Source of the DNA: Bilabrum cf. latius
Lineage: Eukaryota
Direction: 5' to 3'
DNA length: 64,000 nucleotides
Assembly (NCBI GenBank): GCA_965178125.1
Contig: OZ237764.1
Span: 744,001-808,000, forward strand
The notes beneath the pieces are model-generated. The model was not told the DNA's origin and ran no database searches. It saw only the letters and a program-made list of their open reading frames with translations. Positions 6,214 to 63,591 of this stretch are shown one piece after another. The translations under genes were made by a program, and so were the position numbers. Every line of letters starts with the position of its first letter. Positions within the stretch are counted from its first letter, which is position 1.

Positions 6214-8511
6214 ATGGAGCCGCGCGCGCGGCGGCAAGTTGGTTCCGGAATTTCAACCACGGAAGAAGACATTGCACAGTTTACCCGACCAGCTCCAGAG
6301 ATTGTAATGGCTTCGCTGGAATCAAAGTCGAATGGGCTACCCTTGTTTGAGCTGGCCGAGTCGGCCGGGTCAAGCATGTGGGGCCCGAAGTCGCACGATT
6401 CGGACCTCATGTTCTTGCCTCTAGCTGCAAAGCCGCAAGGATACAGCGACCAAGGAACCATCTGTGAGAATTATTATCGTTACTCCCAGATTTGAGCGTT
6501 TAGTGGTAGCCTGCGTGATTGTATAGGCGGAAGGCCTCCTGAATTGCTAAGTCCTCCTCCAGTGCCCCGCACATATGCATCGCAGCAAAGTTCACCGTGG
6601 ATGACAAGGGCTTCTCCATGGCAACTGCTGCACTCATTTCTAAGTCATAGTCCAAGAGTGAGCTATTTTGGGGTGCACTGTCGCGGCTCTTGCCCTGGAC
6701 CGCGGTATAGGTGATTCAAGCCCGACGGCTTCTTTGCTGCGCAATAGCCAGTCCCGGTTTCCGATGCTTCCAATCCTAAACGCCCGATGGACCCACGACC
6801 ACTCATTGCAGCCGCAAAAGTCACGTACGAGCAAGGCTACCGCCGCGTTCGAGGCCGCGAGAAGGGCGACAAGATCAAGGAGACGATCGGCGTACAGCGC
6901 CACGCCACAGGGGGCCCCAGAAGGGGCGACAAGATCAACCGAAGGCGCCGCATCGCGAGGAACGAGAGCGGCCGCGTCGCCGTGGTGCGCCAGCCCTCCA
7001 TCCGCGTGGACCACGACACGTGGACCCAGCTGGACCGGAGGACCCTGGACGAGCTGGAGGCTAGGTCCGTGGCAACCCCTGCCGGCGAGGACTACGCATG
7101 GGTGGGCTCGCTCAAGCAGTACGCCCAGAGGAGGTTCAGCAGCCTGCAGCCTGCCCTGGGCCGTGTCGTGCTCCCGCACGCGCACGTGAGCTCGTACCTC
7201 AAGCAGAGCTCGGTGGAGGCCCGGGATGATCCGATCATGCGGCGGGCAGTGGAGGCGAGGGAGCAGGCGGAGGAGGACTTCGGGGCTGGCAAGATCAAGG
7301 CAGCGGATTTCAAGAAGCACCCCACCGTGTTTGCCTCAGAGGCGGCCATGTCGGCCATCATGTCGGCCAGGCACAGCTTCATCCCTTGGGACGTGGTGTT
7401 CACCTGCTACAAGGACCTCATCTTCATCGAGAGGAGAGACCCCCACGCGGCACGGGTGCCCACAGTGTGCGAGTCTGCCTCTAGGCCACCGGCAGAGGAC
7501 GCTGCCATCCCAGGGAACCAGACGGAGCTAGGCCTAGAGAGCCTCCTCGTGGAGTCTCTCTTCCAGCAGCAGAGCCTCTACGGGGACAAGCAGCAGAAGA
7601 TCAAGACGGCCAAGGTGCCTGCCGGGAGCAGCAGTGGGGCGGCCACCGGCGGGGCGGCATCGTCTGCCGCATCCTCCTCTGCATCGGGCGCGACCGCCAC
7701 CAAGATCAAGGGGCTAGAGGGCCCGCCGGTGGACAAGGACCCCTTCGCCGCCGCCGTGCCGCCGCAGGCACCCGCCACGCACACCTCCTTCCGTTACAGG
7801 GTGTTCGACCTGGGCGCCGACGACGACGGGCAGCCCATCCGAGTGCTGTCTCGCGGGCGCGTGCATGCAGTGCACTGCAAGGACCCCAAGAAGGCCGCGG
7901 TGAAGCCGGTCAACCTGCACGCCCTGCTGGACTGGGAGCGCCCAGGGAGGGGCAAGGTGGAGAGGCACAACGACTGGCGCAAGACCACCGAGCCCGCGCA
8001 GCTCATGCTGAGCATGCTGGGAGAGAACAAGGCCCAGGTAGGCCGCTGGCTGGCCAACGCAATGCTGGGCGGGGTGGAGGAGCTGAGGCTGGCAGTGGCA
8101 CTGCGGACCAACAAGGGCAGCACTGTGGGTCACGAGGTGCGGTTCTGCTAGAGCACGAGTGTCGAGCAGGTGGCCAAAGACGTGCTCATCTCCAGGGAAC
8201 AGATGTGGGGCATGGTGCAGTGGGCTGTGGCAGCCATCCGCACGTATGTGCGTCTCGCTCGCGCCGCCGCCGGCGTGGAGCACGAGGCCCTCGACAGCAA
8301 CGTCTACTCGTTCGTGCTGATGAGACACCCGAACGAGCCCACCGTGACCATCTACAGGACGGACGGCACGACTGGAGGGGAGCTCTTCGGCGGGGCGGAC
8401 GACGCTGCCTTCCTGGAGGAGGACATCCCGGAGGAGGATGAGGACGAGGGCGAGGACGGTGAGGATGACGCGCTTGCCGGGCTGGATGATCTGCTGGATG
8501 ATGATATGTAA
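6214..8511 (+). CDS. EIF3D: Eukaryotic translation initiation factor 3 subunit D (multi-exon; start ATG 6214 or 6307, 5' exons approximate)
   Basis: N-terminal WGP, RDDPIM, AIMSARHSFIPWDVV, TVCES, GRWLANAMLGGVEELRL, acidic tail. In-frame TAG at 6648 and 8149 (HEVRFC*STS aligns with animal HVILGTQQF). Ends TAA 8509-8511. Confidence 0.85.
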
Positions 8512-19302: not shown

Positions 19303-21209
19303 AGCTCCCAACAATGTGGCTCGTCACACATTTTTGTCGCCACGAGACAAACATCTCGGATTGTCGCTCCCGCGCTGAGCGCCCGCAAAACGCGTAGATG
19401 AGACACTCCACAGACTATATCACGCACTGCTGCGCCTCTATCGAGAGGCAAAAGGAAGCAGGGCATTATCGCTGTTTTCTGATCATACTGTCTGATCGTA
19501 GCCTTTGGGTTCACTACAGGTTTTCGTTGACATCATGGCAGTTCAACCTCAGGCGTCAGAAACTTCAACCAGTAAGTGTTTTTGTACTGTATTCGCTTGT
19601 GTGCGATGCTTTGCAAGCCAGTACTGTGTACGTGAAGCATGCAATGGCACGATAGTACTCCACATGGATACTAAGGAGACAGAGTCTGATTCGTTGTTGA
19701 CGTCAAACGAGCCGACACCCGTTCGGGGTGAAGCAGGGCTAACCCGAATCTTGCCCTTCTCGATCCGTACGAGCACGTGCTGCTCGTCGAATGCCGCATA
19801 TATGATCAATCACGTTGTTTCTCAAACGGGGAAGCAGTTGGTACGTCAACATTCCTTTGGACTTTCGACCGCGCAGTTCGGAAAATCCAAGTAGAGATCG
19901 ACAACGACACCAGCGCTGAAGCTCGTGCAGCTGTAGAAAAACTCGACATCAATGGTGATGGGCGCATAGCCTTATCTGAGCTAGTCGTCGCAACCAAGCA
20001 AATGGCCAGCCTTGAGCGCCATAACGAAAGCCTGCAGAATTCGATATACGGGCTGACTGCCATCACGGTCCTGTCGCTCCTCGCGCTTTTCGGGGCATCG
20101 TACCTGGCGATAATCGCCGCGAAGGACTAGTACATTAGTGGGTCCGCCAGGCTTACGAACTCAGATGGGCAAACGCTCGTCACGGCCGAGAACTCTAACC
20201 GTGACTTCGGAGGCAGCGACTATCGCACGCTGCTCGGAACAACGTACAACTCACTGCTGACGCTGAAGGATCTCATGATCACGACGCAGCATGGCGTAAC
20301 GAATCTGCAGATCGCCGGTTTTGACCGAATCGAGCAAGACGAAGCTGCTGGCGTCGAAGCGGAGCTTGTTCTGTATGGTCAATCAGGACACATGCTTAGA
20401 GTCACCCCCAACCTGGTGGAGTTTGCCATCCCTGTGATAGCGGGCGGGACAATCTAGACAGTGGATCTGTCTACGACTGAGAATTCCAACGGACGCCGCA
20501 CCAAGACTGCATCCACTACGAGAGTCCCTGTGCCGAAGACGCCTCTACTCCGACTGTCTGAGGAAGACGTGAGGGCGCACTATGACGCAGGCCGTCTTCA
20601 GAACCTGCATGAGGACACTCATTACAGCATCTCTATCCCCATTCCGGGACTTGATCACACCAGCGTGGCACGTCGGCGTTTGCTCGAGGAGGAAGCCGCA
20701 ACGCATGGCCGGCGTCTGTTCTTCCCTCTGTCCGCACCTCCAGTGGAGTTCAACCAGTTCGTCTACAGGACGATGGAACCAATACCGCTGAAGGAGCTGC
20801 ATGGTCCGAATGAATTCGAGCTCTACTCGCCTTTCTGAGCATGTGGGAGCGGCACAGGCCGGTCTCCATGCCCAGTTGACCAGTCACGTGAGACGACCAG
20901 GTATGACCCATCCGTGATCGATCTGCAAGTTACAGATGTAGCTTCGGGCGTAAGCAACTACCCAACGGATCCCGGTCCGGGACTTCCCGGATCAAGCAGG
21001 CACGACAGGCTTCACGAGAAGAACGCGCCGGACATACGCGTGTGCTGCTATGGGATTAGTCTTGCTCGGTGATCCTTAGGGACCACCATGTGTTCGGTCG
21101 TTTCTGACTGCAATCCGATCAATCTTATTCTTTGGGTAGCGTACCCGTACAATTTTCTCTTTGTTCATACGGATATAAGAGCATCGCAACAAACTCACAA
21201 CGCCACTGG
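19303..21209 (+). repeat. Segmental duplication copy 2 (~1.9 kb)
   Basis: Direct repeat of 11941-13848. Confidence 0.95.
19664..20838 (+). CDS. EF-hand + transmembrane protein, copy 2 (apparently intact)
   Basis: MDTKETESDSLL... joined by inferred intron 19728-19876 to RKIQVEID...DINGDGRIALSEL and a TM helix. In-frame TAG at 20128 and 20455; TGA 20836-20838. Confidence 0.65.
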
Positions 21210-21532: not shown

Positions 21533-23678
21533 TCAGCCTTTCTTTCCATTCATACTCGAAGTACTCGGCCATCTGGATCTAGATTCCAGATGTCGCACCC
21601 CTGCTTTTTCGCTCGGTTTCTGCCCTAGCCATGGCGTCCAATACCCGCTGTGGTTGTCTGGATTCGACTCAGGCACCGTTGGGCCGTGTCCATCAGGCAG
21701 CGACTGATCGATGTACTCGTCCAGCCGAGCCAGCATGCGCTGGGCCACCTCGGGGTACTGAAGGATCACGTCCTTCTCCTAGTATGGGTCACTCGTCACA
21801 TCGAATAGGTACGTGATCCGAGCGTCGGGCCCCAGCCGCACGAACCCATCCGACCCTACCGGAGAGGGCGACGAGAAGGCAGGCAGCTGACCCCGCCGCT
21901 CCGTACGCCCCCTGACCTCCTGTACCAGCCTATGGCCCCACTCGCCCCATCGGATGGACCTCTCCCGGCGAAGCAGATCCCAGCTGTCGAGCTGCCGCAG
22001 TGCGTTGCACTCCCGATCCACTCGGGCCGCCAGGTTCGCCGTGTTCTCCGCGCCGTCACTCGTCACGCGCTCCACTAGCGCGGCGGAGCACTCTCTGAAC
22101 TCGCGCAGAGCCTCCGGGCCCGTGGGAATAGAGGGGTCTGGGTAGCGCCTCTGGCCACCGTGATGCACACTCGTCACACCACAATCAACGGCAGCGTCAG
22201 CCGAGAACGGGTCGGGCCCCAGACCCACCTCGGAGGGAGGCACGCTGGACGAGGAACCGGGAGGATACCACCCGTCCGGCTCCCCAGGATCGATCAGAAG
22301 CTTCCACTGCCTGGTGCTGGTACCGGCATCGGGGGCAGGATCACCACTCCCCAAGTGACCACCACTCTCCAACTGCACCCACACCAGCCCGGCGTACCCG
22401 CAGCAGCCACGCGGGCCGGGTGTGGCCAGCGGGTCGTAGTTCAGCAGCGTTTCATTCCGGACGGCGTCCCGGCTGTTCGCGAGCCCGGTCACGGCAGACC
22501 ACACCCTAGACGGTGCGGCACCGTCCAGCGGAAAACCGGAACTCCTGTTCCCCGCCCCGGCCGCCTCCACTGCCAGCTGGAAGAGATCAACTGCGTGCAT
22601 GAGGGCGCCCGTCTCCTGCCCCCGCGCCCTGGCAGGCACTCCGGCGCCCCACACGAAGGCCAGGCCGTCTCCCCACAGGGTGTGCTTGGAGCCCCGCTGT
22701 GGGTAGTTGGAGCCACCGATGGCCGTGTTGGTCGCGTTTGGGCCTGTGGGCGGGGTGGGGGCTGGGTTCTCGTTGGTGAAGATGACGAGCGTGTCGTTCA
22801 AGTACCCCGCCTCCTCGAGCGCACTCGTCACGTTGGCGAGCTGCTCGTCTACGGCCCGGACCATGCCTGAGAAAGCCCTGCGGTTCTCGTCCGGGATGCT
22901 TGCGTTGGGGTAGCCCGCAGGAGGCTCCTGCGGCGAGTGGTTGTCCTGGCAGGCGTAGTACATGAACAGGGGCTTGTCGCTTCCGCTGGACTTGTGCGCC
23001 TAGATCACCTCTCTTGCACCCCTGACGTACGTGAATGCACTGTACTCGCCGGTGACAGGGGCGGGGCTGGTCCAGTTGCGGGCGTCGATTCCCTTCATCT
23101 TGCCTTGACCAGTGACGCGAGTGTAGTAATCTTCCTCTCCCGCCAGAAAATACGCAGGCGCGTAGTCAAAGCTCCTTCCGGGGGGCGTCATGCCCCAGTG
23201 AGACGACCCGATGTGCATCTTGCCGATAGCTGCCGTTGCGTATCCCGCCTGCTACATTGCGACTGACAGGAGCGTCTCGTTCAGGTATAGCCCGAAGACC
23301 TCATTCATGTTGTAAGTGTGATGGAGCAAACCATATCGGATCGGATATCGCGATGTAAGAAAGCTGGTGCGGGACGGGCTACACCTGCGAAACGAGTCGA
23401 ACAGCTGCATGGTCCAGACCAACGAGCATGTGCGCTCCACACTAGCGCACGAGCCACTCCAAGCGGTCGAACTGTGCCTCTTACACTGGTTGGACGTAGT
23501 AGTTTGACAAGCGAACCGCTTCTCCCGCGAATTTGTCAATCGTGGGCGTCTGGATGTCTGGCGATCCCAAGTACGAAAGGTCTGCTGTGCCGGTGTCATC
23601 CGTGACAAAGAATAAAACATGCGGGGACTTTCTGGCTAGACTAGTAGCTGCAAGAAAAGCGATTGCGGATACAAGCAT
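21533..23678 (-). CDS. Arylsulfatase (formylglycine-dependent, ARSB-like)
   Basis: Signal peptide and PHVLFFVTDD. Intron 23385-23484 restores YVQPVCSPSR (CxPSR motif); also AGYATAAIGKMH and KPLFMY. In-frame TAG at 23252, 23000, 21779; ends TGA 21533-21535. Confidence 0.9.
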
Positions 23679-23845
23679 AAGCAGCGCAGTGTTGTCTGCG
23701 CGATCTTCTGTGCCGAAGTGCACAAAGGCTTTGTGCAGAATTACGACTCCGAACGAGACACACTGGTGGGGATCTACTAGTGTATAGGCCTACCACTTGC
23801 TTGCTCGCAACCATTAAACTCATCCACGATCCCCTGATACTGTCC

Positions 23846-36881: not shown

Positions 36882-39800
36882 TCACTCCACGTCTGGGAGA
36901 CTCGACCTGCACACAGGGCACTCTTGCTTGACGCCCATCCACTCCCTGAGGCACTCCGCGTGAAAGAGGTGGTGACACGGAGTCACCATGTACTAGCCCC
37001 TCTGCAGCGGCAGCTCCATTGGCTCGAGGCACACAACGCACGTGGGCTGGGAGGACTCGCCCCCGCCGGCATCCCCCGCACCAGCACTCGCACCCGCGTC
37101 AGCACTTGCACCGGCCGCGCTGGAAGGTCCTGCCCCCGAAGCCCCGTCTCTTGCACCCTCCCGCCCTGCATTGGCCCTCTGTCTCCCCAGCCGCATGGAG
37201 GCCCCCCCCGGCGCGCCCCCCTCCTCCACGTCACCGTGCCCGCCCTGCCTCGCACCCCCACCCACGCCTCCAGGCCGCACAGCCGCACCCCCGTTGGCGC
37301 CCCCATCGGTCGCAAGGGCGGGCATGGCCTCGGCTCTCTCGGACTCCCCTGCGCGGTTGGGCTCGGGCAGCCGCGAATACACCTGCCTGCCTCCGGGGCC
37401 GCGACGCACAGCTGCGTCACCGTTGCACCAACGCCGCAGGTATCGCGACCCGCGGCGCCACACGCGGCGACCCACCCGCATAGCCCCATAGAACGACCCA
37501 ACCCAGCCAGTGTACCTCACCCCATTCGGGTCACGCCCGAACACTGCGGCGCGCCGCTCCTGCTGCTGGCCCTGTCCCTGACCCTGACCCTCGCCCCCTT
37601 CCTGCTGCTAATCTCCGCCCTCACCCTCAGCCTAGCCATCATCGCCACCTCCCTACTGCTACCCGTTGGCACCGCCCGCCCCACCACCGACTGCACCCGC
37701 GGGCGCTCCCTCGGCATCGGACTCGCTGCCCGCGGCGTCCTCGTCCACAAGCACCCGGCCGTTCTCGTCCACCTCGATCTCGCGGAAGAAATCGTACTTC
37801 CGGGGCAGGCAAATCGAGGGAACAAAGAAACGAGGCCCCAGGAACTGCTACAACAGCACCACCGTGCACTGCAGCAGCATCCATACCGAGATGGAGACAG
37901 CAAGGTGCTGGTTGTAGGCACCCACCACAATCTGTGTTACGAAGTTTACCGGGCAGCCGTAGAAGTACACCACCGGCAGCATACGAGTGAGGGTGATAGT
38001 GACAACCTGATGCGTCGGCAGCACTTCCTTCTTGTTGCTGGCCGCCTGGTGCACGATCTGTGGCACCCAGAAGCTGGAGGTGAGCACAACGAGGATGGTG
38101 ATGCCGTCCCCGGTGTAGTAGATCACCAGCATGCCCGCTATTAGGGCAGCGTAGAACTGAGCGTACACCACCCCGAGTTCTCGCCTGACGTTGTCCCAAC
38201 CTCCAGCAAATGCCTCCGGCCTCTGCGCCTTGAGGAGCGTAAGCAGGAGCCGCATCTCTAGAATGCTGAACAGCACCAGCTGGAAGAAGGCAAGGATCGC
38301 GAATGGACCCAGGAGACTGCCCCCGATCACGGAGAAAGTGATGTGGATCAGGGTAAGGAAGGCGTCCTGCAGGGCTTGGATCCCCACGCTCATCATGCTG
38401 GAGCCCTCCGCCACTCTGGAGTGCATCATGGCGCTGTACAGGTGCGCGAGGGTCAGCCCCACCTGCACCACCACAGCCACGGTGGAGATCATCGCATAGG
38501 CCTGCGAGTCGCGGGAGAGTCGATCCACATTGATCAATACGGCCGCGGTGGTTATGTTTGCGCTGTAGTTGCAGTTGGGGGAGCCCACTGTTCCCTGGAA
38601 CACGTCGACCTGGGGGCCGGTGAAGCCCTTGCGGCCCGAGATGCGCTCAAAGCCGATGGACCCGTGGAGGGAGTGCATCACGGCACGGGCTCGGGCCCTG
38701 GCCGCGGTAAGGGCCTTTTCTGCCTGTTCCCTGGTGACTGCCACCCCATCACCTTGTTCCTTGGAGGAACCGGGGTCGTTCTCCCCCTCCAGAAGTCGAG
38801 ACGAAACCGCAGGGCGCAGAGAGGCCGCCCTGGCCAAAGTCGCGTCCAGCGATCCGATTCCGACCGCAATCTTGTTGTCATCCCCTGATCCTGCCTCCGT
38901 CCCGGCTCCTGCAGCTCCCATCGGCCCAGGTCCCGAGATGATGGAGGCTGATGCCATGCCTTTGCCGGCCGGCCGGAAGGACAGGGGCACCGATTTTGAG
39001 GCAGGCGCACTCTTAGAGCTCGAGGGACCACCACTCTCAGGGAACAGGACCTCGTCAGGGAACACGCGCGGGGCTCCCTGGGGCACGACGCCCCGCTCCC
39101 CCCTGACCCCTTCCGACGTCGCCTGCAGCATGGCCAGGACGCTCACTGCCACGTGTGCCGAGCCGCGGCGTAGGGAGCCAGCTCCCCTGGCAGAGGACGA
39201 AGCGGCGCGGGCAACACCGGCGGCAAAGTGGTGGACCATGCTCCTCGCGTGTGCCGTCCACGCCGCAGAGTCCAGCCAGCTGGCTCCAGAGTCGAGGGGG
39301 AGGGGAATGTCCGGTGCAAGCGTGGAATCGGCCATGAGCCGCCTGCCCCTACCCGGACTCGAACCTGCGCCTGCCCCCTCTTCAATCGCTTGCATGGCCC
39401 TAATCCTATGCTCGGCCAGGTACACTTCGTCTATCAGGATGGGCATGGCCTGTGCCCGCACCACCATCTGGCAGCGGGACCCCACCTCGGGGGCATTGAG
39501 GGTCCATTCGGGGTGCTCACTGGCGTCGAAATCAGAAGCGGAGGAGGAGGACTGGAGAACTCGCCCGTGAGCAGGACCCGCCACCGTGAGACCGTCCATC
39601 TGTGTGCACTCGTCACATGGAGAGTGCCTACCCTCGAGGTGGTGGGCGCGGCCCCCTTTCGGGTCGTGGTCGAAGCCGCCCTTGGGCTGCATCTGCATCA
39701 GGTGCTGGCCCAGGATCGCATCCACACTGACATCTTGCGGATTCTCGACATCGTCATCATGATCATCATCGCGAGTGCTTGCATCGCTGCCAGTCCCGCC

Positions 39801-40538
39801 ATCACTGCCAGTCGTGTCCTAGCCACTACCCCCGTTACTACTGGCACCCTCCCTACCTAACTTTGAGTCTTCCTTGAGGCGCTTTTTCATGTCGCCGGCG
39901 GGTCTGTTCTTGGCGCGGATCAGCAGCTCGAACCTGTGTGGGGCGGAGGCCATCACCAGCTCGCCAGTGGCAGGCATGTAGGTACCTATCATGCGCCGCG
40001 TGGCGATTCCTGGCAGGCGGATGGGATCCAAAGGTGAAAAATGGCCATCTACGACATCTGCAACCAATTCAAGGCCGCCATGTACCTGCAAAACACCCGG
40101 CTGGGAGGTCGGAAACGACTGCACCGAAATGAGCGATTGGCCGTGGCTGGGGGGGATCCCAAGCTGGTGCTTCGGAGCAGACCCATTGAATAACACCATT
40201 GCTGAAATATTCCACGGCGAGTCCTTTCGATACAACCCCATGCCAAAATCGCCTTTATACAGCCCGAAAAAATGGCCAGTTATGTTGTTGTCGTGCGTAA
40301 GCAGCCCCCGGGCTCGATTCAACTCCTCCTCTACCCAAGGCGCACCTCCCCCGGTGTACTCGCCCGGCACAACACTTGTATCGCCCTCCTCACCATCCTT
40401 CTTGTCGGATTTACGGAGGCCAAGCGCCTCCAGCACCCCGTCATCCGTCAGAAACATACTAACGATAAAAAACGAGAAGATAGCTGCGACAAAGTACTAC
40501 CTTCGTCTCTGCTGGTTATCATCATCATCTAGTTGCAT
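36882..40538 (-). CDS. Transmembrane RING-H2 E3 ubiquitin ligase, Tul1/Dsc1/FLY1-like (~1218 aa)
   Basis: Multi-TM block, SFWVPQI, LL*QFLGPRFFVP, RING CVVC...TPCHHLFHAECL..W...CPVCR. 8 TAG (40497, 39819, 37848, 37659, 37653, 37632, 37608, 36993); ends TGA 36882-36884. Confidence 0.9.
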
Positions 40539-40958
40539 AATTTTGTACCGATAATTCGATACTCGGTGAGGTGAAATGCTTTTTTTGCGGTCAGGCGCGG
40601 GCTTTTCCTGGTCAGCAAAATATGAAGATAAAGCCAAATTGTGGCGTGTGCGGGACCCTTCGGCCCAGGCGGCCGTTGATTGGATGGGATTACCTAGGGC
40701 CTGACCGTATTCTTAATGGGAGTACGGAACACTTGATGGCGAATCCTCGCCCCTCGTGAGGTCCCCCCAGGCTCGGGAACGGCCCGTGGTCCTGGCTTGA
40801 TTGAGACGTTTGGTTGCAACCGCCTTGCGGCTTTGAAGCTGCAGGTCCAGCGATACTACATCCGCCCTGGGTTTCTGTTGAGCCTGTAATTCCCCCAGTC
40901 TGAGCTGCTTCTAAACTTTACCATAGCGTCTGCTCCGCCAGGTGACACCGTCTTTGAC

Positions 40959-42005: not shown

Positions 42006-45000
42006 ATGAGTGGATCCAACAAAGTCGGGCTGAATAGTATTCACTAGTTACATGGTGATATTGAGGGTCAGCTTCCCGTTTTGGACTTACATGTGAAGGG
42101 CCTCACGGTTCTGGGACGGAGTGCGGCGGTTGCGGAGGAAGACGTGAACGCGTTTTCTGTCTTGTGTCAATGCAGGTGTGACGCATCATAGCCTGTAAAA
42201 CTACTTGATAATGTTTCAGCTACCTTTCCTAGCGGGGAACTCACGCTGGTAAGCTCTCAGATGACGTCCGCATGCCGGTTGACAAGCCACGTCGCTCCTC
42301 GAGCTTTGCATCGGAATATCTTATTGCGCACACCCTGATACCGACTCGCAGGTGATTGCGCCTCCAGGAGCAGGTAAAACTACTCTACTTCGCACATTGT
42401 CCGGAGCCATGGAGATGAAACCGACATCGGAGCTCGAACAAGCCATGACCAACCCACCGTCCGCTCCTGTAGCCTTCGGCGAGTACACCCTCGGCGGCAA
42501 GTCGGCCCTGGAGCTCGGTGGCTCCCGTGTAAGCAGACTTGTCAGCCGTGTAGTTCAAGATGATGAACACTACGGGCTTATCACCGTGCGGGAAACGGCA
42601 GAGCTTGCCGTGCGCCTGAGCAATCCACCGGAATCACCGGAGCAGAAGACGGCGGCCGGAGTGGACCCTGCCGAAACACCAGCGCAGGAAGCTGCCAGGA
42701 AGGCTGCACTTTTGCTTGAAGAGCTCGGTATTGATAATGTTGCCGATACTGTTCTCGGGAATGAGACCGTTCGTGGCGTCAGCGGTGGCGAGGTGAGAGT
42801 GTCGCCTTGTCCGTTCCACAGCAAACATTGTTGCTTCGACTTCAAGCGAAGGCGTCCCCATCCCAACTAACTTAATTTCATGATTCATTTCTCTGTCTAG
42901 TTGCGCAGGCGAAGCGCGTCACGATCATGGAGGCTCTTGCGACCCCCTTAAGAGCCCTGGTGCTGGACGACGCCTCGAACGGCCTGGACGGTGCTCGCAC
43001 GAAGGCAATCGTCGCAAAGCTGAAGGAATTTGCTCGGGAGCTGCGGATTCCCATCGTGATGGCCCTGCAGCAGCCATCAAGGGAGGTGTTCGACCTCTTC
43101 CACCGCATCGTGCTCATGCGCCACGGCCGCGTGCTCTACGAGGGCCCGCGGGACGAGGCTGGGGCCTTCTTGGCCTCGATCGGCCTGGCGCCGCCCTCTC
43201 ACCAGTCAGTCCCCGACTGGCTGCTGGAGGTGGCATCCAGCCCCTCTTTGTTCTCTCCCTCTGTGGCCGTGCTGCAGGACGGGGCCCGCCCCGATGGTCT
43301 CGAGCGGTTCAAGTTCGCGCCGACGCTCGACGGGTCTCGGACCGGGGACCCTGCAGATTCCAAGGCGAGCGGCAAGGGAGGGGCGGCCCGCGCCTCTCCC
43401 ACCGAGGGCAAGGTGGACGCAGGATCGGATCAGTCCACCAGTGGAGTGGCCGTGCACCTGGACGAGGAGGGCGGCCTGGAAGAGGAGCTGGCCTCTGCCG
43501 CCTCGGGGCGCGGGGAGCTGCCCGGGTTCGACCCCCTGGCGGCGGTGCAGGCGCTCCCCGCCCTCACCACGCGGGGCATCTCTGAGCACTTCTATGCCAA
43601 GTGGGCCCCTGCCAGGCCAGCGGCGGGTCGTCCTGCGGGCGGGAGGATCCCCGGGGTCCGGCTGGCGGCAGCGGCCCCCGTGCAGCATCCCAAGGAGCTG
43701 GCCTGGCCCAAGAGCCAGGCCACGGACCTCCTCTTCGGGGAGGGATACGCGGCTGATTCGTGCACTCAGATGGGTCTCCTGCTATGGAGAGACACGATGC
43801 TCATGCTCAGGGACACGGAGTTCCTGGCCACGCACCTCGTGAACTCGGTCATCGTGGCGCTGCTGCTGGGCGGCGTCTTCTACCAGCTGGGACAGGAGGA
43901 CTTCCAGCAGTACGTGTCGCTGATCTTCTTCGCGTCGCTGTTCCTTGGTATGGGCAATTTCAGTTCACTTCCGGTTACTATTTAGTACCGGGCTGTGGCG
44001 GACAAGCAGGTGCTGGCGGGCATGTACCACCCGACGCTGTACGCTCTGTCACAGGCGCTCGTCAGCATCCCGATCGCCGTCCTGGAGACGCTCATCTTCA
44101 TCTCGATCGTGTACTGGATGTGCGGGTTTGCCAATGATGTCGGTCGTTTCCTCATCATGGCGGCCATGTCTCTCTCGATCAACCTGTTCATGGCGGCGTA
44201 CTTCCGGTCCGTCGCGTGGATCAGCGGCAATGCGGGATTCGCTGCGGCACAGGGCATGGCCATCGGCCCCTTCGCGCTACTAATGGTTACCAATGGCTTC
44301 GTGGTGACCCGCGAGAACCTGTCGGATGCCCTCTGGTGGTTCAGCTACGTCAACCCGCTGGCATACGGCATCAGGGGACTGGTGGTGAACGAGTTCTCGG
44401 ATCCCAGCTACGACAACTAGATCCCGATCGTGGAGGAGTCCGTCCTACCCAACGGCACGCAGGTCACCAGCATCCTGGGCACGAGGCGCATCGGCGACGC
44501 CTACCTCGAGTCGTATGACATGCCCACGGAGGACTGGAGCTTCTGGATCACGCTGGGCTTCCTGGTGGTGCTCGGCGAGATGCTGCTCTGCGTGGCGGGA
44601 GGCACCACTGCCTACAGCTGCATCCGGACGTACGGATCAAGGGGCACTGCCCGGGAGGAGAACACCAAGGAGGAGGAAAAGGCCGCGCGGAAGATCTCCA
44701 AGAGAGTCATTGACGGGGTTGCATCAGGCAGGCTCACCCCCGAGATCGAGATGGCGAGGGCAAGGAGCTCCCCCTCGGAGGAAGCTGCCCGCGGGAAGGC
44801 CAGCGGCGCATCGGCTGGTTCGACCCACGGCAGCTCCATGGTGTGGGACAACGTCAAGTACACTGTCAAGCTGACTGACGGCTCTGACAAGACTCTCCTG
44901 CACGGCATCTCGGGCTGGGCCAAGCCGGGCCAGATCACTGCGCTGCTGGGCGAGTCTGGTGCGGGCAAGAGCACGCTGCTGGACTGCCTGGCGGGCCGCA

Positions 45001-46954: not shown

Positions 46955-47341
46955 TACGGCTGGCCCTTCCCGGCACCTACCACCTCTATCCAGCATGCAG
47001 TCAGTCAGTACGATTGAGACGCTGGAGAGGGCCTGCGCAAGCGCCTGGTGTACAGCGTCACGGTCCTGTGGTTCGTGCCTCTGCCAGCACCAGGAAGCCC
47101 AGCATGATGCAGAAGGCCCAGTGCTCCGTGTGCATGTCTAACTCCGAGCATGAGCATAGTGTCTCTCCACAGCAGGAGACCCATCTGAGTGCACGAATCA
47201 GCGGCGTATCCCTCCCCAAAGAGGAGGTCCGTGGCCTGGCTCTTGGGCCAGGCCAGCTCCTTGGGATGCTGCACGGGGGCTGATGCCGCCAGCCGGACCC
47301 CGGGGATCCTCCCGCCCGCAGGACGACCCGCCGCTGGCCTG
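46955..47341 (-). pseudogene. Inverted, internally deleted fragments of an ABCG gene copy
   Basis: 47146-47341 is the reverse complement of 43613-43808 (6 substitutions); ~47085-47138 resembles 44517-44570; ~46955-47002 weakly resembles 45609-45650. Confidence 0.8.
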
Positions 47342-47608
47342 ACAATGGCGGGGTCCCAGTCACAGGATCAGAGTACTTCCGAAGGTTCGTACGCCATGAT
47401 CAATTTTCGAAGATGAAATCGTAATATGCGATCCCATGAACCACAATCGTCCTGACGATAGGCAATTCAACGGCTGGTTCATTGCGATTAAGGAATTCAA
47501 TTTCCTAACCATTGTACCTTTAAACTAAGGAGCCGAGCTTCTCCCTGTGCTACGGATTGACCGAGTGCCAACGACTACGGGTCGGACAACGTGAACGCTT
47601 CGAGTATC

Positions 47609-50600
47609 ATGGCCTCGGAAGGCAGTCAGCGCAGCTCCAGGCGCCCTAGTAAATTGCTAGGATCGACAACACTTGCAGGTGGGATATCTGCCTCAGAACT
47701 CGAAGCTCTATCGTAGCAATCGGCGGAAGCTACCCCTGATCAAGAAGTCCTTGCCACATCCGGTGTCTGGCAAAAGATTTACGATGCCAACGAGTAGAAG
47801 CCATTCTATTACAATTTAAAGACGGAGGAATCCATGTGGGAGCGCCCGGCGTCCTTCGGGTGGGAATCAGCGGCCGACGAGGAGTCTGGTGAGCGGTTCT
47901 GGCTTTTTGAGGACGACGATCAAGCCTACCTGTGGGCCAATCCAGCGTGGCAAGCAGGTGTAGACGAGGAATCCGGCAATCGGTACTGGCACAACGTCGA
48001 CACGGACGAGAGCACGTGGGACAGGCCGGACGACTACGCATCGGACACCGAAACCGAGCGAGTTTCGATGGAAGAGGGCGCCAAGCAGAGGCGAGCACTC
48101 AAGGAGGCAGCTGCTCGCAAGGCCAAGTAGGCTAGCAAACTACCCCCACCCCCGCCCCCGCCTCCGCCTGCGGCCGGCCCAGCCGGGCCTGGGAGCTCTC
48201 CCGGCACTGGCAGCAGAGACGGCACCACTCTGCCGTCTTCCAGGGGCGGCCAGGCCTAGAAGGCCGTCCGCAAGGCCGCTGTCGTGGTGCTAGCCAGCGA
48301 TTCGGAAGCCTCAGATTTCGAGGATGGTGAGGAGGACCATGTACACGCTACTGTAACCCGCCGGGTCACCAAGGTCAGCCGGGGGTCCGGCGTGACGGTG
48401 AAGAGAAAGAAGGCGGCAGGTGCAGCTGCGGGCAAAGCAGGCACTACTGCAGTTCCCGGTGGTGCAACAAAGGGATAGGGGCAGGGAACAGCTGACCCAT
48501 AGAGCACAGGGGTGCCGGAGGAAGCAAGTCTGCTGCCCCCGCCCCCGCCTCCTCCGGGAAGCGGCGGCGGGCAAATTTCAGGTGCATCGCACGAAGGTGC
48601 ACCCCCACCGCCGCCCGCCGCACCTTCCAGCACCGATGCACTCCCGCCCCCCCCGGCAGCCCCTGCCCCTGCCCCTGCACCCGCACCCGCACCTGCACCT
48701 GCATCTGCTGCAGTCGCCTCCAGCGAGCCGCTGCCTCCCCTCAACGACGCGCTCAGCACGCGGCTCCTGCAGCGCATTGCCACGGACAGCACCCTCCGGC
48801 AGGGCATACCCATCCTCAAGTTCGCGGGACCATCCGACCTGACCGCCGCCCGGCAGGTGCTCAGTGACTCGGTGGCTCGGGTGGGCCCCGGGGAGGAGGT
48901 GGCGGCGGAGGGCGAGCTGGCGGCGGGCGGGGCCGTGCTGGTGCTGGACGGGGACATGGATGTGACGAGTGAGGGAACAACAAGGGCTGCCGGGCCGGGC
49001 ACTGTGCTCTTTGGCGACACGCTGCTCTCGGGCTCGTCTCGCTACGAAGGCTCGCTCAGGGCCAGGGAACAAGGGCGGGGGGCCTATGTGGCGCGGCTGG
49101 CCCTGCACGCGATGCAGGCAGCGCTCGGGCAGGACTGGCTGGTGCAGCGGGGGAGGCAGGCGCTGGAGAGCGATGCCTCCATGCTTCCCACGCTGCTGCA
49201 GCCTGTGCCCTTCTTGGCCGCACACAGGGAGGCCTCGGCGCCCGTCCTGATGGAGCTGTCGCTGGTGGTGCAGAGGCCCGCGCTGCACCTGGTGATCCAG
49301 GAGGGCGCCCCTGTGGACGGGTTCTTCGTGCTGCTGCTGGGCAGCGCCAGGGTGGCCGTGGAGGGTCGCGTGGTGGCGGAGTGCGGGCCAGGGGCCTTCT
49401 TCGGAGAGATGTCCATGCTGGGGACAGGCGGGCATAGTGGCAGTGGCGGTGCGGCGGCAGCAGGGGCCGGAGCAGGGTCGCTGCCGTCGTCGTCCTCTTC
49501 CGGTGGTAAGCTCGCCAGCGCCTCGGTGGTGACGACGAGCCCCTCGCTGCTGCTGTGCGTCCCCCGGCGTTCCTTTGGCGAGCTACTCGAGAGGTGTCCT
49601 GGAGTGGCGGACGAGCTGCAGAAGCACGCCATACGCCGCACCGCTCTGAATCTCAAGGGACTTGGCGCCGCGAGTCCCCTCGCACTCGCCACGGAAGCCC
49701 AGCTGCAGGCCCTGGCGGCTCGGGCCTCGATAGAGACCGTCCCAGCAGGCCGACCAGTGGCAAGGCGGGGCGACCCTAGGGGACATGTGACCGTCGTGCT
49801 CTCCGGAACAGTGGAGGAACAGGGATTCGAACCCGCGAGCCCGTCCTCTTCAGACCCCATGCCTGCGCTCACGGGGGAGACGAAGCAGCGCAAGCCCGGA
49901 GATATCGTGTCCGCGTCGGTGCTCTTCGAGGACTGCCCCTCGTCGGTTCCGGCGGATGCTGTCGTGGCTGGGGGCGAGCCCGCCCGGCTGATGCGGTTCG
50001 GTTCGCAGGACTTTGCAGCTGCAATGGGAGGTGCGGGCAGCGCCGCGATGGCTGCTGTGCTGCTGCGGCTGCGCGGCGGCTCCCCGCGAGCGAGGGACAT
50101 CGCCGCGGTGCCTGCCCTAGCCGAGGCTCTCATCAAGTTCGGCGGGAGCAGCAAGGTCAGAAAGGGGTCCGTGCAGCTGCTGGGCGCCGCCAAGAAGTTC
50201 CGCTTGCTAGCCCGTGGACTGGCGCCGCGCGCGGGCGTGGTGGACGTGCCATCGCCGGACATGGTGGCCGCAGCTCGGGCCGTGGAAGCCATGCTGCAGG
50301 ACCCGGTGGAGGGTCCCGCCCTGCAGGCCATCATGGGGTAGCCCCTGTATGACGAGTGCAGCAAGAAGCTACACGCCTCGCTGCACGCAGCCCACCGCAG
50401 GCGATTCTCGATGATGCCCGGCGGCAGAGCTGCTTCCGGGGCGGGTGCAGGGGGCGGGGCATCGGGAGGCGACGGGCAGCGGGCGGGGCCCATGCCAGTG
50501 ACCCTGTTTGACCGGGCCGCTGCCGCGCTAGACGCCCACCTGGCGGAGATCGTGAGCGAGTTCGTGGACTCGCCCATGTACGCTGCCTGCATGCGACGGG

Positions 50601-53600
50601 TGGCCGAGTCGCTCGCTGACGGCGGGGCGGATGCTGCGGGGGCCGACGGGGACTCGGCGACTGGCGGGGACGGGCTGGGTGGCAGCAGGCGGTCCTCGAA
50701 GCTGGACGGAGGAGCCATGAAGGAACCTTCGTTTTCGCAGTGGTTCGGCGTGGAGAAGCTGAACCGGTACGGGCAGTGGCAGGCCAGAGCGCTCCGGCTG
50801 CATCTTGTCGAGAGGCAGCTGCTCGTGCACCGCTCCAAGACGGAGGCGGAGCAGCACAACTTCGAAGCCACGGACGTGGCCAAAGTCGTCAGGGTGGCCA
50901 CGGAACAGCGGGATCAGCTGCGGCTGGGCTTCCGCCCGGAGCTAGAGGAGAAGGACTACGATCTCAAGTTCGAGGGAGGGGAGACGGGGCGGGATGACTT
51001 CGTGCGGATGCTGCAGATGCTCGGGGGCAGCACCCTGCTTGTGGAGGACGAGGGAGAGGACTACTCCAGCCAGGGAACAGGGCTGTTCCTCACCCAGAAA
51101 GTGGGTAAAGGCGCGCTCTTCGTGGCCGTGCAGCCGGACGCCCGCATCCTCGTGCACGGGTCGGACCGAGGCGCGGTGCAGGCATCAGCCAGGGCAGCAG
51201 AGGACGCTGCGCTCCTGGGGAGCGGAGACCCCCTGAGTGCGGCTGCGCACGCTGCCGTGAGTATGGGCTCCGCCGGCTCGGACGTGAAGTCTGTCCGCAT
51301 CACGTGGCGCACGTTGATCCACCCGTGCAACCTCGATCCCACCCGCGCCGTGGTGTGCCCTCATGGCGAAGAGGCGCCCGTCCCGCGCGCCCCAGTGGCG
51401 CCGCAGCGCCAGTCCACGGCCCCCCGTTCGGGACGCCGCCTTTCCTCGCTGATCGATATCATGGGGAACAAGTCGGGGGGCCCCCTCTGGGGGGCGGCAC
51501 ACCCGGGCGGGGCTGACAAGGGCAGCATGGAGCTGATCTTCTCCTCCCCGCAAGCCAGGGACAGGTTCACAGGGCTGCTGCGGGCCGTGTCCGAGGGCAT
51601 CGACATCCCGCTGGCTAGAGCCACTGGGGTGCGCCGACTGGCGGCTGCGGCGGCCCAGGAGCCCGGTAGAGAGACGGCCACTGCGCAGCGGCTCACGCGG
51701 GAGGGCGCGCTGGTGTGCGCGGCCACGTGGAACGTGGGCGACTCGAAGCCGCCCAAGGACCCCTCCGAGCTGTGGCCCTGGCTGCCCCCCGGTCGCTTTG
51801 ACATCTACGCCATCGGTCTGCAGGAGTGCTCGAGCCTGCAGTCATGGGTGAGCACCATCTGCGATGCCATCTCCTCCAGCGACACATCCTCAGCGACGGG
51901 GGCTGGGCCGGGCGCAGCGGCAGGTGGTGCCAAGTCCGCCCCCAGTGCCGATGCCAACGGGGCCCCAGCCGACGCGCTGGAGTACCTCAAGAGCAGGCCG
52001 GGCAACTTCGCGCTGGTTGCGAGCCACTCGCTTTGGGAGATGCAGCTGCTCGTATTCGCGCGAGAGGACGTGGCGCGCACGGTTAGCCAGCTGAAGCAGT
52101 CCTCCGTGGCGACCGGGCTGGGCGGGATCATCGGGAACAAGGGGGGTGTGGCCTGCGGCATGGTGCTGGGTGGCACCACCCGCCTGTGCTTCATGACGTG
52201 TCACCTCGCGGCACGGGCCACGAGGCTCCGCACCCGCGCCAGCAATTTCGCCGAGATCCTCCGCCGGCTGGAGGTGGGTCTCACCGCCCAGGGGACCCCT
52301 GCCAACCAGGCGCTGCACGATTACGACCATTTCTTCGTGATGGGAGACCTCAACTACAGGGTGGATCTAGGGTTCCACGGGTCACCGACCGAGTTCCAGA
52401 CGGTGCAGCAGCACATTGACGCGATGGACTTTGCTCCTCTCGAGGCAGCCGACCAGCTGGTGCACTAGAAGGTGAGGGGCAACGTCTTTGCTGGGTTCGA
52501 TGAGCAGCCCATCCGGTTTGCGCCGACGTACCGCATGGTCAAGGGGAAGGCGCTCACCTACAGCAACAAGCGGAACCAGAACATGAGCTGGACCGACAGG
52601 GTGCTATGGAGGTCGGCGGGGGCACTCCGGGGCGGCGTGCAGCCGGTCTTCTACGCCTCGTGCTTCTCGCTGGACAACTCCGACCACAGGCCCGTGTCCG
52701 CGGGGGTGCGCGTGCCGATGCGGCAGCCCTACCTGCACCTGGACCGTGGACTCGGAGCCGGATCAGCTCGGCAGGTGGTGCTGGAGCTGGGCGGGGCCGA
52801 GTTGTGCGATGCTCCGTTGTCTCCCACGGAGCAGGAAGCGGCCGACGCGGGGATGGGCGCTGCCACCGGCTCCCCCGTGTCGCGCTCTCAGTGCCCCAAG
52901 GGACTGATGGAGTTGGCAGGGCCAGACAAGGCGGTCAAAGCGGCGGCCGAGCTGGCCAGCGACAAGAAGGCCAGCAAGAAGGGCAAGCAATCCGCCGTTG
53001 CGCCGCCCAAGCCGGGCAAGATGCCAGACGCAAAGTCCGCGGCAAGGATGGCGGCTGAGGCCCAGGGGGTGGCGCTGGACGCCGGCGGGATCCCGCGGAG
53101 CTGTGGGCCCTCGGGCAAGCGTAAGGGCTTCGATTTCAAGGCGGGCGAGGGGCTGTTCCTCACCGTGTCGGCCCCCTTCGTGGGGTCCACGGCAGCGTCG
53201 GGTGTGGTCCCTGCGCAGGACGCGGGGACTCTGGTCGCGCGATGGAGCGGGGCGCAGCTGCCCCACGCCGTGATGCGGCTGGCAGACGAGTCCTGGATCG
53301 CCGATCAGAACGTGCTACTGACGGTGCGGCGTTCCACGGGCCAGATCGTTGGGCAGGCGGAGCTTCCTCTGCTGGACGCGCGGGCGTATGCCTCGGACCC
53401 CTACGGCTCCATCGATGGGCTCACCCTTGCGCGCGTGCTCGAGCATCCCACTCTGCTGCGAGCGCTGGCTGCCTTCCTCCAGATGGAGCAGACGCCCGAG
53501 CACCTCGCCTTTCTGCTCGTCACACGGTGGTACAGAGAGGCCGTGCTGGAGGTGGGTCACATGGTGAGGGAGGGTGCCGGGCCAGATGTGGTGGCCAGCG

Positions 53601-54709
53601 CCATGGCCGGTGCGGTAGGGATCGCTGCCATGCGCGGGGCTGCCAAAGAGGCGAAGGAGGATGCACAGGCGGCTGCCAAGAGCAAGAGCAAAGGCAAGGC
53701 AAAGGGCAAGAAGAAGGGCAAATCTGCTGCAAGTCTAGGACTGGGTGGGACTGACGAGGCCAGCACGCCGGGGCTGGGCGGCAAGTGGCTGGGCCAGATG
53801 GTGCGGCGCGCGAGGCACAAGGGCAAGGCCGCCATCGCGGTGCGGGTGCAATCCAACCGTGGATCTGCAGCGGCTGCTACTGGTGCTGGGTCGGGAGACG
53901 GGGTGGATCTCCCCGTGTGGGCGCTGAGCCATGTGCATGCGGCGGCCCGCGCCATTGCGCAGGAATACGTGGGCGGGGGCATGCCCTCGGAGGTGAACGT
54001 GCCCGGGTCCATGTCCAAGGCCACCCGGGCTGTGGTTTTGGAGGATATGCTGGGGGCTTGTTCCCTGGGAGGGGCGGAGCCGGGGTCCGATTCCGGATGG
54101 ACGGCAGAGCGCGCGGCTGGCGTGTTCGACACATGCGCAGGGGAGGTGCTAGCGCTGCTGGAGCGGGACAATTTCCCCCGGTTCCAGTCGGCGCTGCAGG
54201 AGAGGGACAGGGCAGGGGCCAGGGCTGCGTACGGCAAAGGGGGTGGCGTCGCCGCGCTGGGCCAGGGTGCGCCATTCTGCGTGCAGCTGGTGCGTGACGG
54301 GAGGTCGGTGGGGTCCCTCCGAGGTAAGGCTCGTCTCCTGACGGTGGGTGCATCGTGCTGCAGGGCAGAGACAGCGAGGGAGTGCAGACAGCTCGAGTCC
54401 AGGAGGCAGCTCATCAGCGCGGAGAGCTCCATGGCCAGTCTGGCGGCAGCACAGGCGATGGGGGCTGGGCTGGCTGGAGGCGGGGCGGCCGGGGCAGCGG
54501 AGGGCGGCGCCGTGGAGGTGGAGGGGGAGGGGGCGGATGACCTGGAGCTGGGGAGCGACGATGACGAGGACCTGATGGCTGGCCTGCTGCAGGGGGGCTC
54601 CTCGCTCAAGAAAGTCGAGGTTGCAACCGGCGGCGGGACGGACGCGGACTTGGACCCCGGCTCGGAGATGGAGGATGAGGACGATGAGGATGATGATGAC
54701 GATGAGTGA
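47609..54709 (+). CDS. Giant inositol polyphosphate 5-phosphatase (~2366 aa): WW repeats, Pro-rich, cNMP-binding domains, RGS-like, PH-like, 5-phosphatase, second RGS-like
   Basis: TWNVG, IGLQE, GNKGGV, CHLAA, GDLNYR, FAPTY, SWTDRVLW, SDHRPV; cNMP motif FFGEMSML; WW motif YWHNVDTDESTWDRP. One 7.1-kb frame with 8 TAG (47714, 47795, 48128, 48257, 48476, 48500, 50339, 52466); ends TGA 54707-54709. Confidence 0.88.
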
Positions 54710-62377: not shown

Positions 62378-62539
62378 ACTACCAATTTGACGTATCTGAG
62401 AGGTGCCGAAGGGCTGAATGTCCATTCGGCCGAATCTTCATCTTGAACGATTGCGGCACACAAACTTTGGCTGGGCATACAACGAAACGGCTAAACATGT
62501 ATTCCCACAAATTCCACTGCAGACCCTGTAAAACGAGCA

Positions 62540-63329
62540 TCATGAGCCCCCACTCGCCGCACCAGCCCCGGTCGCTGCCCCGGACCCCTTCTTGCCCTTG
62601 CTCTGCTTGACGTTGAGCTCTCTCGCCACCTTGTCCATGAACTCCCTCACCTTTGTAGCGCTCGCCTTCTCATCGACGTCCGCAGAGCGCACGGCAGCTC
62701 GCAGGGCGCCCTCCATGGCCGCAGCCCCGCCGTCCAGCGCCTCGAACTTCCCGATCAGCTCGTCCAGGTCGGACGGCTGCACGTCGCGGCCAATGGCACT
62801 CTTCACAATAACCAAGGACTTCTCCTAGTCCAACTCAGCGTCCAACACGCCAGCGTACTTTGCCTTCAGCACAAGCTCCTCTACCTCATCGGTGTCCTTC
62901 AGATCCAAGTCCTTGCTTAGCTGATCGTAAGATAGCTCGCGGCTAGATTGTGCCATCGTCACAATGGAAAGTTGTTTAAGTTTCGATATGTGCTTGTCGG
63001 TTAGGTCGGGCATTTCTCGTTCCTTGGCTGCGATGGCGGTGCACGCATGATCCGCACTCGCAACATTTGCTACACTTCTTGCGCACTCACTGAACAAATG
63101 TTCCGAATTTCTTACCCTTATAATCTGAATATGTTCCAAAAGCAAACAATTCTAACGCCTTTTTCCACTTGCTCGTAACGACGTGCTTCATTCCATCGTG
63201 GTCAAGAAGCTCGCCAAACACCAGCACCTTTGGATCGGCAAGAGCCTACCGGATTGCCCCATCGATACCGCCTGCCGATGATGCTGAATCAAACAACACG
63301 AAATACTTTTCTAAGGCACCCGCTGACAT
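62540..63329 (-). CDS. COPS7: COP9 signalosome subunit 7 (PCI domain)
   Basis: VFGELL, LELFAFGTYSDY, KLKQLSIVTMA, LD*EK...IGRDV; intron 63028-63115. TAG at 63246 and 62825; ends TGA 62540-62542. Confidence 0.88.
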
Positions 63330-63591
63330 GATATGCTTGAAATGGAATCGTTCTTACCGAGAATGCGGAACCTATCTAGGCCCGTGAAATGCGCGGCGCC
63401 TGACCATCGGTGGTACTGCTGTTTATTCCACAAGAAACCCACCACTGGCCACTACAATCACCAAGAATCGTATGGTTTATGAGTCAATACGGGTTTAAGA
63501 TTACATCTTGAAGTGCTGTGTCGCTAGATCACCCGCTTGGGCAGAGCGAGCGGGTGTCCCAAGTTTTGTTAGCTTTGCAACCCAGCCTGAC

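Follow-up and report, generated by a model that had tools for sequence, protein, structure and literature searches.

The 64,000-nucleotide (nt) stretch analysed here, called the window below, is part of contig OZ237764.1 of Bilabrum cf. latius, has a G+C content of 60.3% and contains no N. Its reverse strand carries a gene for subunit 7 of the COP9 signalosome (CSN7), which the standard code would break twice at in-frame TAG codons. The gene is composed of two exons separated by a short intron (Table 1), and the coding sequence after splicing comprises 702 nt, corresponding to 233 codons plus the stop. An earlier note on this DNA, made from the letters alone, had placed two TAGs in frame within this gene; both codons indeed lie in the frame, one in each exon, and correspond to residues 28 and 139 of the spliced product.

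Table 1. Features of the CSN7 locus and two further TAG-bearing features, in positions of the window.
Feature	Position	Strand	Basis or remark
CSN7 coding span, ATG to TGA, two exons, 233 codons	62540..63329	-	Frames and splicing; Pfam PCI; CSN7B/CSN7A structure matches
Exon 1, 214 nt, residues 1-71 and first base of codon 72	63116..63329	-	Aligns to the N-termini of CSN7A/7B; contig pieces end at 63116
Intron, 88 nt, GT..AG (GTAAG...CAG ends), phase 1	63028..63115	-	Predicted, then found skipped by contigs of runs X5, X6 and X7; kept in X1
Exon 2, including the TGA terminator (62542-62540)	62540..63027	-	Frame, splicing, structure matches
In-frame TAG 1, residue 28	63246..63248	-	Frame opened by the ATG at 63329
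In-frame TAG 2, residue 139, within the PCI domain match	62825..62827	-	Frame closed by the TGA at 62542-62540
Pfam PCI match, exon-2 residues 7-75	62801..63007	-	Coordinates converted from residue numbers
Longest spliced transcript-like contig, 757 nt, run X5	62489..63333	-	Contig ends are no proof of RNA ends
In-frame TAG in eIF3 subunit d, aligned to Q of solved eIF3d chains	8149..8151	+	Pfam eIF-3_zeta, 2e-47
Frame of 2,382 codons with eight in-frame TAGs: two WW, cyclic-nucleotide-binding, inositol polyphosphate 5-phosphatase and RGS domains	47561-54709	+	Uninterrupted frame

The searches against Pfam and against solved structures were performed with TAG read as X, so that they are blind at both CSN7 sites. 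The Pfam family PCI (PF01399) matched exon 2 with an E-value of 1.2e-07 and 32.3 bits (cut-off 22), covering profile positions 16-83 of 84. Comparison of exon 2 with solved structures revealed CSN7B (E 3.9e-14) and CSN7A (E 2e-11) as well as the chains 9is6_G and 3chm_A, which are named only 'COP9 signalosome complex subunit 7' (E 6.2e-13 and 7.2e-12), whereas other PCI proteins were far weaker, such as eIF3m (E 0.041) and RPN9 (E 0.45). Exon 1 alone, with 71 amino acids, aligns with residues 11-82 of human CSN7A (E 2.9e-05) and with CSN7B, the E-values ranging from 2.9e-05 to 8.3e-05. Judged by this homology, the gene is that of COP9 signalosome subunit 7, a PCI-domain subunit of this eight-subunit complex. 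Similar to human CSN7A, CSN7B and the other solved chains, the predicted protein has an ordinary length of 233 amino acids, and its N-terminal helical part, its PCI domain and the next helix can be aligned with theirs. However, it shares only about 30-39% identity with its nearest homologs outside the close relatives, and two of its presumed glutamines are written UAG.

In these alignments, the X of the first TAG sits under the Q of 'lihqvleap' and 'lisqvleap' in CSN7A and CSN7B, and the X of the second TAG sits under the Q of 'kldq' in the solved CSN7 chains. The two alignments proposed in the earlier note, AIR*ALADP with LIHQVLEAP of animal CSN7 and ELD*EK with the LDQ motif of the PCI domain (the asterisk being TAG), were thus reproduced.

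Contigs of public sequencing runs were placed on the gene, those of X5 and X6 belonging to one study, that of X7 to another, and that of X1 to a run of the DNA type. One contig from each of X5, X6 and X7 (757, 740 and 618 nt, respectively) skips exactly the 88 nt between 63028 and 63115, with CT..AC borders on the forward strand, and over these 618-757 nt no other letter differs, both TAGs being unchanged. The X1 contig represents the unspliced form, in which the intron is kept. The three skipping contigs are taken as transcript-derived because a GT..AG intron is precisely missing from them, and both UAGs are present in the mature spliced CSN7 message. Since the spliced contigs keep both TAGs, a hidden intron, RNA editing and an assembly error are removed as explanations of the interrupted frame, and a pseudogene is largely removed as well. 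The contigs of X5 and X6 end 34-51 nt past the TGA (at 62506 and 62489), which fits this TGA being the real terminator of CSN7; the X7 contig ends within exon 2, at 62594. At the other side, the X5 and X6 contigs start just 4 nt upstream of the ATG, indicating either a very short 5' untranslated region or cut contigs. The identical spliced CSN7 sequence (62489-63333) was found in runs filed under three coded organism labels and coming from three studies.

The residues found by homologs at the two TAG positions were read from a larger alignment. An exhaustive search of 1.84 billion cluster representatives, using exon 2 with its TAG read as Q, gave 942 homologs at E<=1e-3. The best 150 of the 942 were used; the gene's own fragment P0001 was dropped and the close relatives P0002 and P0003 were set aside, leaving 147 homologs that were aligned with the spliced protein carrying X at both TAGs. 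At the column of residue 139, glutamine is present in 127 of the 147 sequences, the others having H (6), T (5), S (3), A (2), P (2) and E (2). The column of residue 28 has 109 non-gap rows, the remaining 38 of the 147 being gapped or too short, and holds Q 43, D 12, R 11, K 11, E 9 and S 6, followed by N 5, L 3, T 3, A 3 and single G, V and P. When 230 columns with at least 50 residues each are ranked by their frequency of glutamine, whose background is 5.5%, residue 139 comes first and residue 28 fifth; by our own calculation, a pair of columns drawn at random has a chance of about 4e-4 of lying within the first five ranks. Pairwise phmmer alignments, which are independent of the multiple alignment, gave similar counts, with Q in 127 of 147 sequences at residue 139 and in 42 of 98 at residue 28. 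As log-odds against background, the two CSN7 columns yield +4.64 nats for Q, -0.84 for T, -1.47 for S and -1.49 for E. In these alignments, residue 139 is a truly conserved glutamine, whereas at residue 28 glutamine is simply the commonest residue. The earlier claim that both TAGs sit on conserved glutamines therefore holds fully for the second site and, for the first, in the weaker sense just given. At neither site does another residue prevail over glutamine, the outcome that the earlier note had named as refuting its reading.

The close relatives provide a further view of residue 139. P0002, which comes from other assemblies and is 65% identical (BLASTP), has an ordinary Q at this position. 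P0003, which is 89% identical and lies on a contig other than that of the gene's own fragment P0273, ends one residue before the column of residue 139; therefore the near relative also has a stop-type codon there. Such a combination, a stop-type codon in a near relative and a standard glutamine codon in a more distant one, would be expected of a lineage that uses TAG and CAR as synonyms. A word-indexed protein search with exon 2, in which 2 of 358 candidates passed, returned only the own fragment and P0002. The own CSN7 is represented in the protein collection by fragments cut at TAG (P0001 and P0273), and gene prediction here should therefore read TAG as glutamine.

The use of TAG as a sense codon extends across the window. 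With TAG read through, the ten longest frames together grew from 5,803 to 12,323 amino acids. Fifteen frames with 13,587 codons contain 68 in-frame TAGs, up to nine per gene, corresponding to 5.0 per 1000 codons versus 5.7 off-frame. In-frame TAA and TGA are both zero in the same 15 frames, versus 2.7 and 18.0 per 1000 off-frame, and the frames end in TGA (10 of 14) or TAA (4 of 14). The G+C content of third codon positions (GC3) after the last TAG stays at 0.60-0.92 in all 14 of 14 frames, therefore no TAG looks like a terminator. The TAG-bearing frames encode a PDR-type ABCG transporter, a TRM2-type methyltransferase, a DUF2921-RING E3 ligase, a sulfatase, eIF3d and a PX-domain protein. For the eIF3d TAG, the aligned residue of the solved chains is the first of two glutamines, in 'ilgtqqfkp' (human-type) and in 'iletqqykp' (wasp). 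The TAG in the 5-phosphatase domain corresponds to Q in synaptojanin, and the TAGs of the TRM2 frame have no aligned columns. The domain combination of the frame at 47561-54709, to which the 5-phosphatase belongs, is unusual.

The use of TAG can also be followed in individual frames. In the DUF2921-RING E3 ligase frame (36885-40712), four TAGs fall within 18 codons (37608-37661, reverse strand; residues 1018-1035) in a tract rich in Gly, Gln and Glu. The TAGs are clustered there beside runs of ordinary glutamine codons, suggesting that TAG may have arisen from CAG in Gln-rich tracts. A direct duplication of 1.9 kb (11941-13848 and 19303-21209) is 98.8% identical with 20 mismatches, and each copy contains a 368-codon frame without a Pfam match. 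The two frames differ by four synonymous and three non-synonymous codons and share the same two in-frame TAGs; as no TAG/sense difference exists between the 1.9-kb copies, the meaning of TAG is unreadable there.

Several other features of the window were observed. A tandem array at 16685-17071, repeating about every 24 nt or at a multiple of that length, codes for recurring DDTG[A/V]GGG units within a 524-codon frame without a Pfam match. An inverted repeat of 196 bp, with arms 97% identical, was found at 43613-43808 and 47146-47341. One arm lies within the ABCG frame, ahead of the part that encodes the first membrane domain, and the other in the spacer between the ABCG and 5-phosphatase genes; the repeat could be the footprint of a mobile element or a duplicated fragment. 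In the sulfatase frame (21533-23740, reverse strand), the Pfam Sulfatase match begins only at profile position 48 of 301, and the start of the domain is probably in an upstream exon. The same frame has an active-site-like motif, 'cspsr', aligned to solved sulfatases.

Taken together, the CSN7 locus of this GC-rich (60%) eukaryote is most likely a gene of two exons that is intact and expressed, and UAG is almost certainly a sense codon in this organism. We propose that UAG most probably stands for glutamine while UGA and apparently UAA are still stops, a reading to which we give a probability of roughly 0.85 on the strength of sequence comparison. The glutamine meaning, as the earlier note had put it, is supported by the CSN7 columns, by the Q of P0002, by the spliced contigs, by the TAG usage across the window and by the Q of the eIF3d chains. 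A tRNA-Gln with a CUA anticodon together with an altered eRF1 is the mechanism proposed in the published accounts of other UAG-only reassignments (PMC5304391, PMC11687900). By analogy with those cases, a tRNA-Gln of this kind would decode UAG here; by wobble rules its CUA anticodon would leave UAA unread, and the eRF1 of this organism may have lost efficient recognition of UAG.

A number of observations weigh against this reading or limit it. The run type 'RNA?' of the contig sources is a guess in the records, and none of the listed runs that contain the gene is recorded as RNA; runs with a small share of it were not used. ARAGORN predicted no tRNA gene in the 64-kb window, and hence no CUA tRNA there, Rfam gave no match at gathering score in the same window, and the eRF1 gene lies outside it. 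The discrimination in CSN7 comes mostly from one column, residue 139, as glutamine makes up only 39-43% at residue 28. The query of the homolog search carried Q at TAG, which may favour Q-bearing matches by a couple of bits; the X-based searches of solved structures agree with this search at the CSN7 sites. The other TAG columns open to comparison, those of ABCG, the sulfatase, the 5-phosphatase and orf906, are variable and by themselves lean slightly to glutamate or leucine. SHIP1 has E at the 5-phosphatase TAG. The four TAG columns of the ABCG transporter are variable, their commonest residues being E (12 of 44, column 370), P and D (7 each of 35), L (19 of 48, column 865) and I (6 of 44), with Q counted 3, 1, 6 and 1 times in the same order. 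Fungal PDR chains carry E at two of the ABCG sites, and the ABCG columns alone lean to glutamate (E 2.07 versus Q 1.40 nats). No named protein is more than about 32-37% identical to the ABCG protein, and protein-atlas matches of eIF3d and DUF2921 reached the family level only, with a mixture of phyla. Searching metagenome DNA for ABCG-like sequences gave 577 stretches, of which 80 were kept, with a best identity of 35% (best segments up to 44%), and thus no close relative in which TAG and CAG could be compared. Among five solved homologs, the residues opposite the two sulfatase TAGs vary, being K/Q/N for one and T/K/N for the other. For the neighbouring 906-codon frame, orf906, the sole relative found (P0271; 57% identical, 1 of 8,000 candidates) shows L opposite one TAG, while the other falls in a gap region, so that this relative says nothing about glutamine. 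Lastly, the absence of in-frame TAA is partly built in, as the frames were delimited by TAA and TGA, and the assignment of TAA as a stop rests on a small read-through gain and one drop of GC3.

These last points bear on whether UAA and UAG might both encode glutamine, with TGA as the sole stop and TAA rare through GC-richness. This alternative agrees with our reading on UAG and differs on UAA only. No other deviant nuclear code is nearly as common in the literature drawn on here as UAR=Gln, and the predominance of TGA at the frame ends would suit it, as would the way in which the frames were delimited. However, reading through TAA on top of TAG added only 682 amino acids to the ten longest frames, and the frames of 2,382, 1,501 and 1,067 codons remained unchanged. 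At the observed CAA/CAG ratio of 0.24, about 16 in-frame TAAs would be expected in the 13,587 codons if TAA were glutamine, and none was seen. In addition, TAA closes four of the frames, and GC3 falls from 0.80 to 0.44 directly after the TAA of eIF3d. UAA is probably still a stop, and a shared glutamine meaning of both codons appears unlikely.

With regard to the amino acid, a glutamate meaning has precedents: UAR encodes glutamate in peritrich ciliates and in Blastocrithidia, and UAG does so in one uncultured ciliate. The evidence for glutamate here is confined to the ABCG columns, where it leads at column 370, in the fungal chains and in the ABCG-only score, and to the SHIP1 residue. At residue 139 of CSN7, in contrast, E occurs in 2 of the 147 homologs and Q in 127, and at residue 28 the numbers are 9 and 43; glutamine is also what P0002 carries at residue 139 and what the solved chains shown carry at the eIF3d site. 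The log-odds over six aligned columns amount to +6.04 nats for Q, +0.57 for E, -0.88 for T, -4.07 for S, -6.55 for L, -8.39 for K and -10.63 for Y, and the discrimination among them comes from CSN7 (Q +4.64, E -1.49). As far as these alignments go, every conserved column under a TAG is a glutamine column, and the variable ones, with mixed residues that are mostly polar and in part hydrophobic, as weakly constrained positions would have, do not decide. Glutamate is thus an improbable meaning of UAG. Some other residue, such as serine, leucine, tyrosine or lysine, is a shade less probable still: leucine tops ABCG column 865 and stands opposite one orf906 TAG in P0271, and nuclear codes with UAG=Ser or UAG=Leu are described in the literature consulted, but at residue 139 leucine is found in none and serine in 3 of the 147 homologs, and all four residues score negatively in the six columns. 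That the TAGs are untranslated, owing to a pseudogene, an assembly or sequencing error, a hidden intron, RNA editing or rare leaky read-through, can hardly be upheld, even though the standard code breaks the gene twice and the case rests on DNA and transcript sequence, as independent runs of two studies agree letter for letter in the spliced sequence, both TAGs included, homology runs on both sides of each TAG, the two TAGs are retained in both members of the 98.8%-identical paralog pair, and low-efficiency read-through cannot give proteins with up to nine TAGs per gene, 68 of them in 15 frames with GC3 kept.

Reassignments of stop codons in nuclear genomes are rare, and a change of UAG with UAA kept as a stop is rarer still. 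The published account lists Iotanema, Protocruzia, some phyllopharyngean ciliates, a rhizarian and Scotinosphaera as cases of the latter kind (PMC11687900). Each new independent case tests the uncoupling of UAG from UAA through a CUA-anticodon tRNA, and also how the GC content of a genome shapes which stop codon is captured. In practice, annotation of this genome with the standard code would break most long genes, since open reading frames would stop at TAG. In the open-access literature, no report was found of a GC-rich eukaryote outside ciliates and metamonads that uses UAG alone for glutamine. A more far-reaching possibility, less likely than not, is that the organism belongs to a lineage without a known deviant code, neither ciliate nor metamonad, in which glutamine-coding UAG with UAA and UGA as stops arose independently in a GC-rich, intron-bearing genome; at least two related organisms would then share this code, one with a stop-type codon at residue 139 of CSN7 and a more distant one with a CAR-type glutamine at that position.

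Among the known codes, UAR=Gln is described for ulvophytes (Dasycladales, and Trentepohliales with Cladophorales and Blastophysa), many ciliates, hexamitid diplomonads (Hexamita), the oxymonad Streblomastix and the aphelid Amoeboaphelidium protococcarum in the literature drawn on. The present code resembles these in reading UAG as glutamine and in having TGA as the commonest terminator, but differs in lacking in-frame TAA and in using TAA to end frames. The published genomes of Amoeboaphelidium are reported with about 40% GC (PMC10608142). Amoeboaphelidium itself was ruled out as the source, given this value against the 60.3% of the window and the lack of near-identical named proteins. In Scotinosphaera, a green alga, UAG is reported as serine, and in a sainouroid rhizarian and some ciliates as leucine. 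As in these organisms, UAG alone appears reassigned here with UAA as a stop, whereas the columns under UAG disfavour serine and leucine, with scores far below that of glutamine.

The closest counterpart is the code in which UAG alone encodes glutamine with UAA and UGA as stops (the pattern of NCBI table 15), described for the fornicate Iotanema spirale, the ciliate Protocruzia tuzeti and two phyllopharyngean ciliate lineages (PMC5304391, PMC11687900). The published cases include tRNA and eRF1 evidence, whereas the present one draws on sequence comparison, with weaker evidence for UAA as a stop. Similar to those organisms, in-frame UAG is found here at conserved glutamine columns, in-frame UAA and UGA do not occur, and both of the latter end frames. 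In contrast to them, the window studied here has 60% GC, contains spliceosomal introns and carries very long genes rich in low-complexity sequence.

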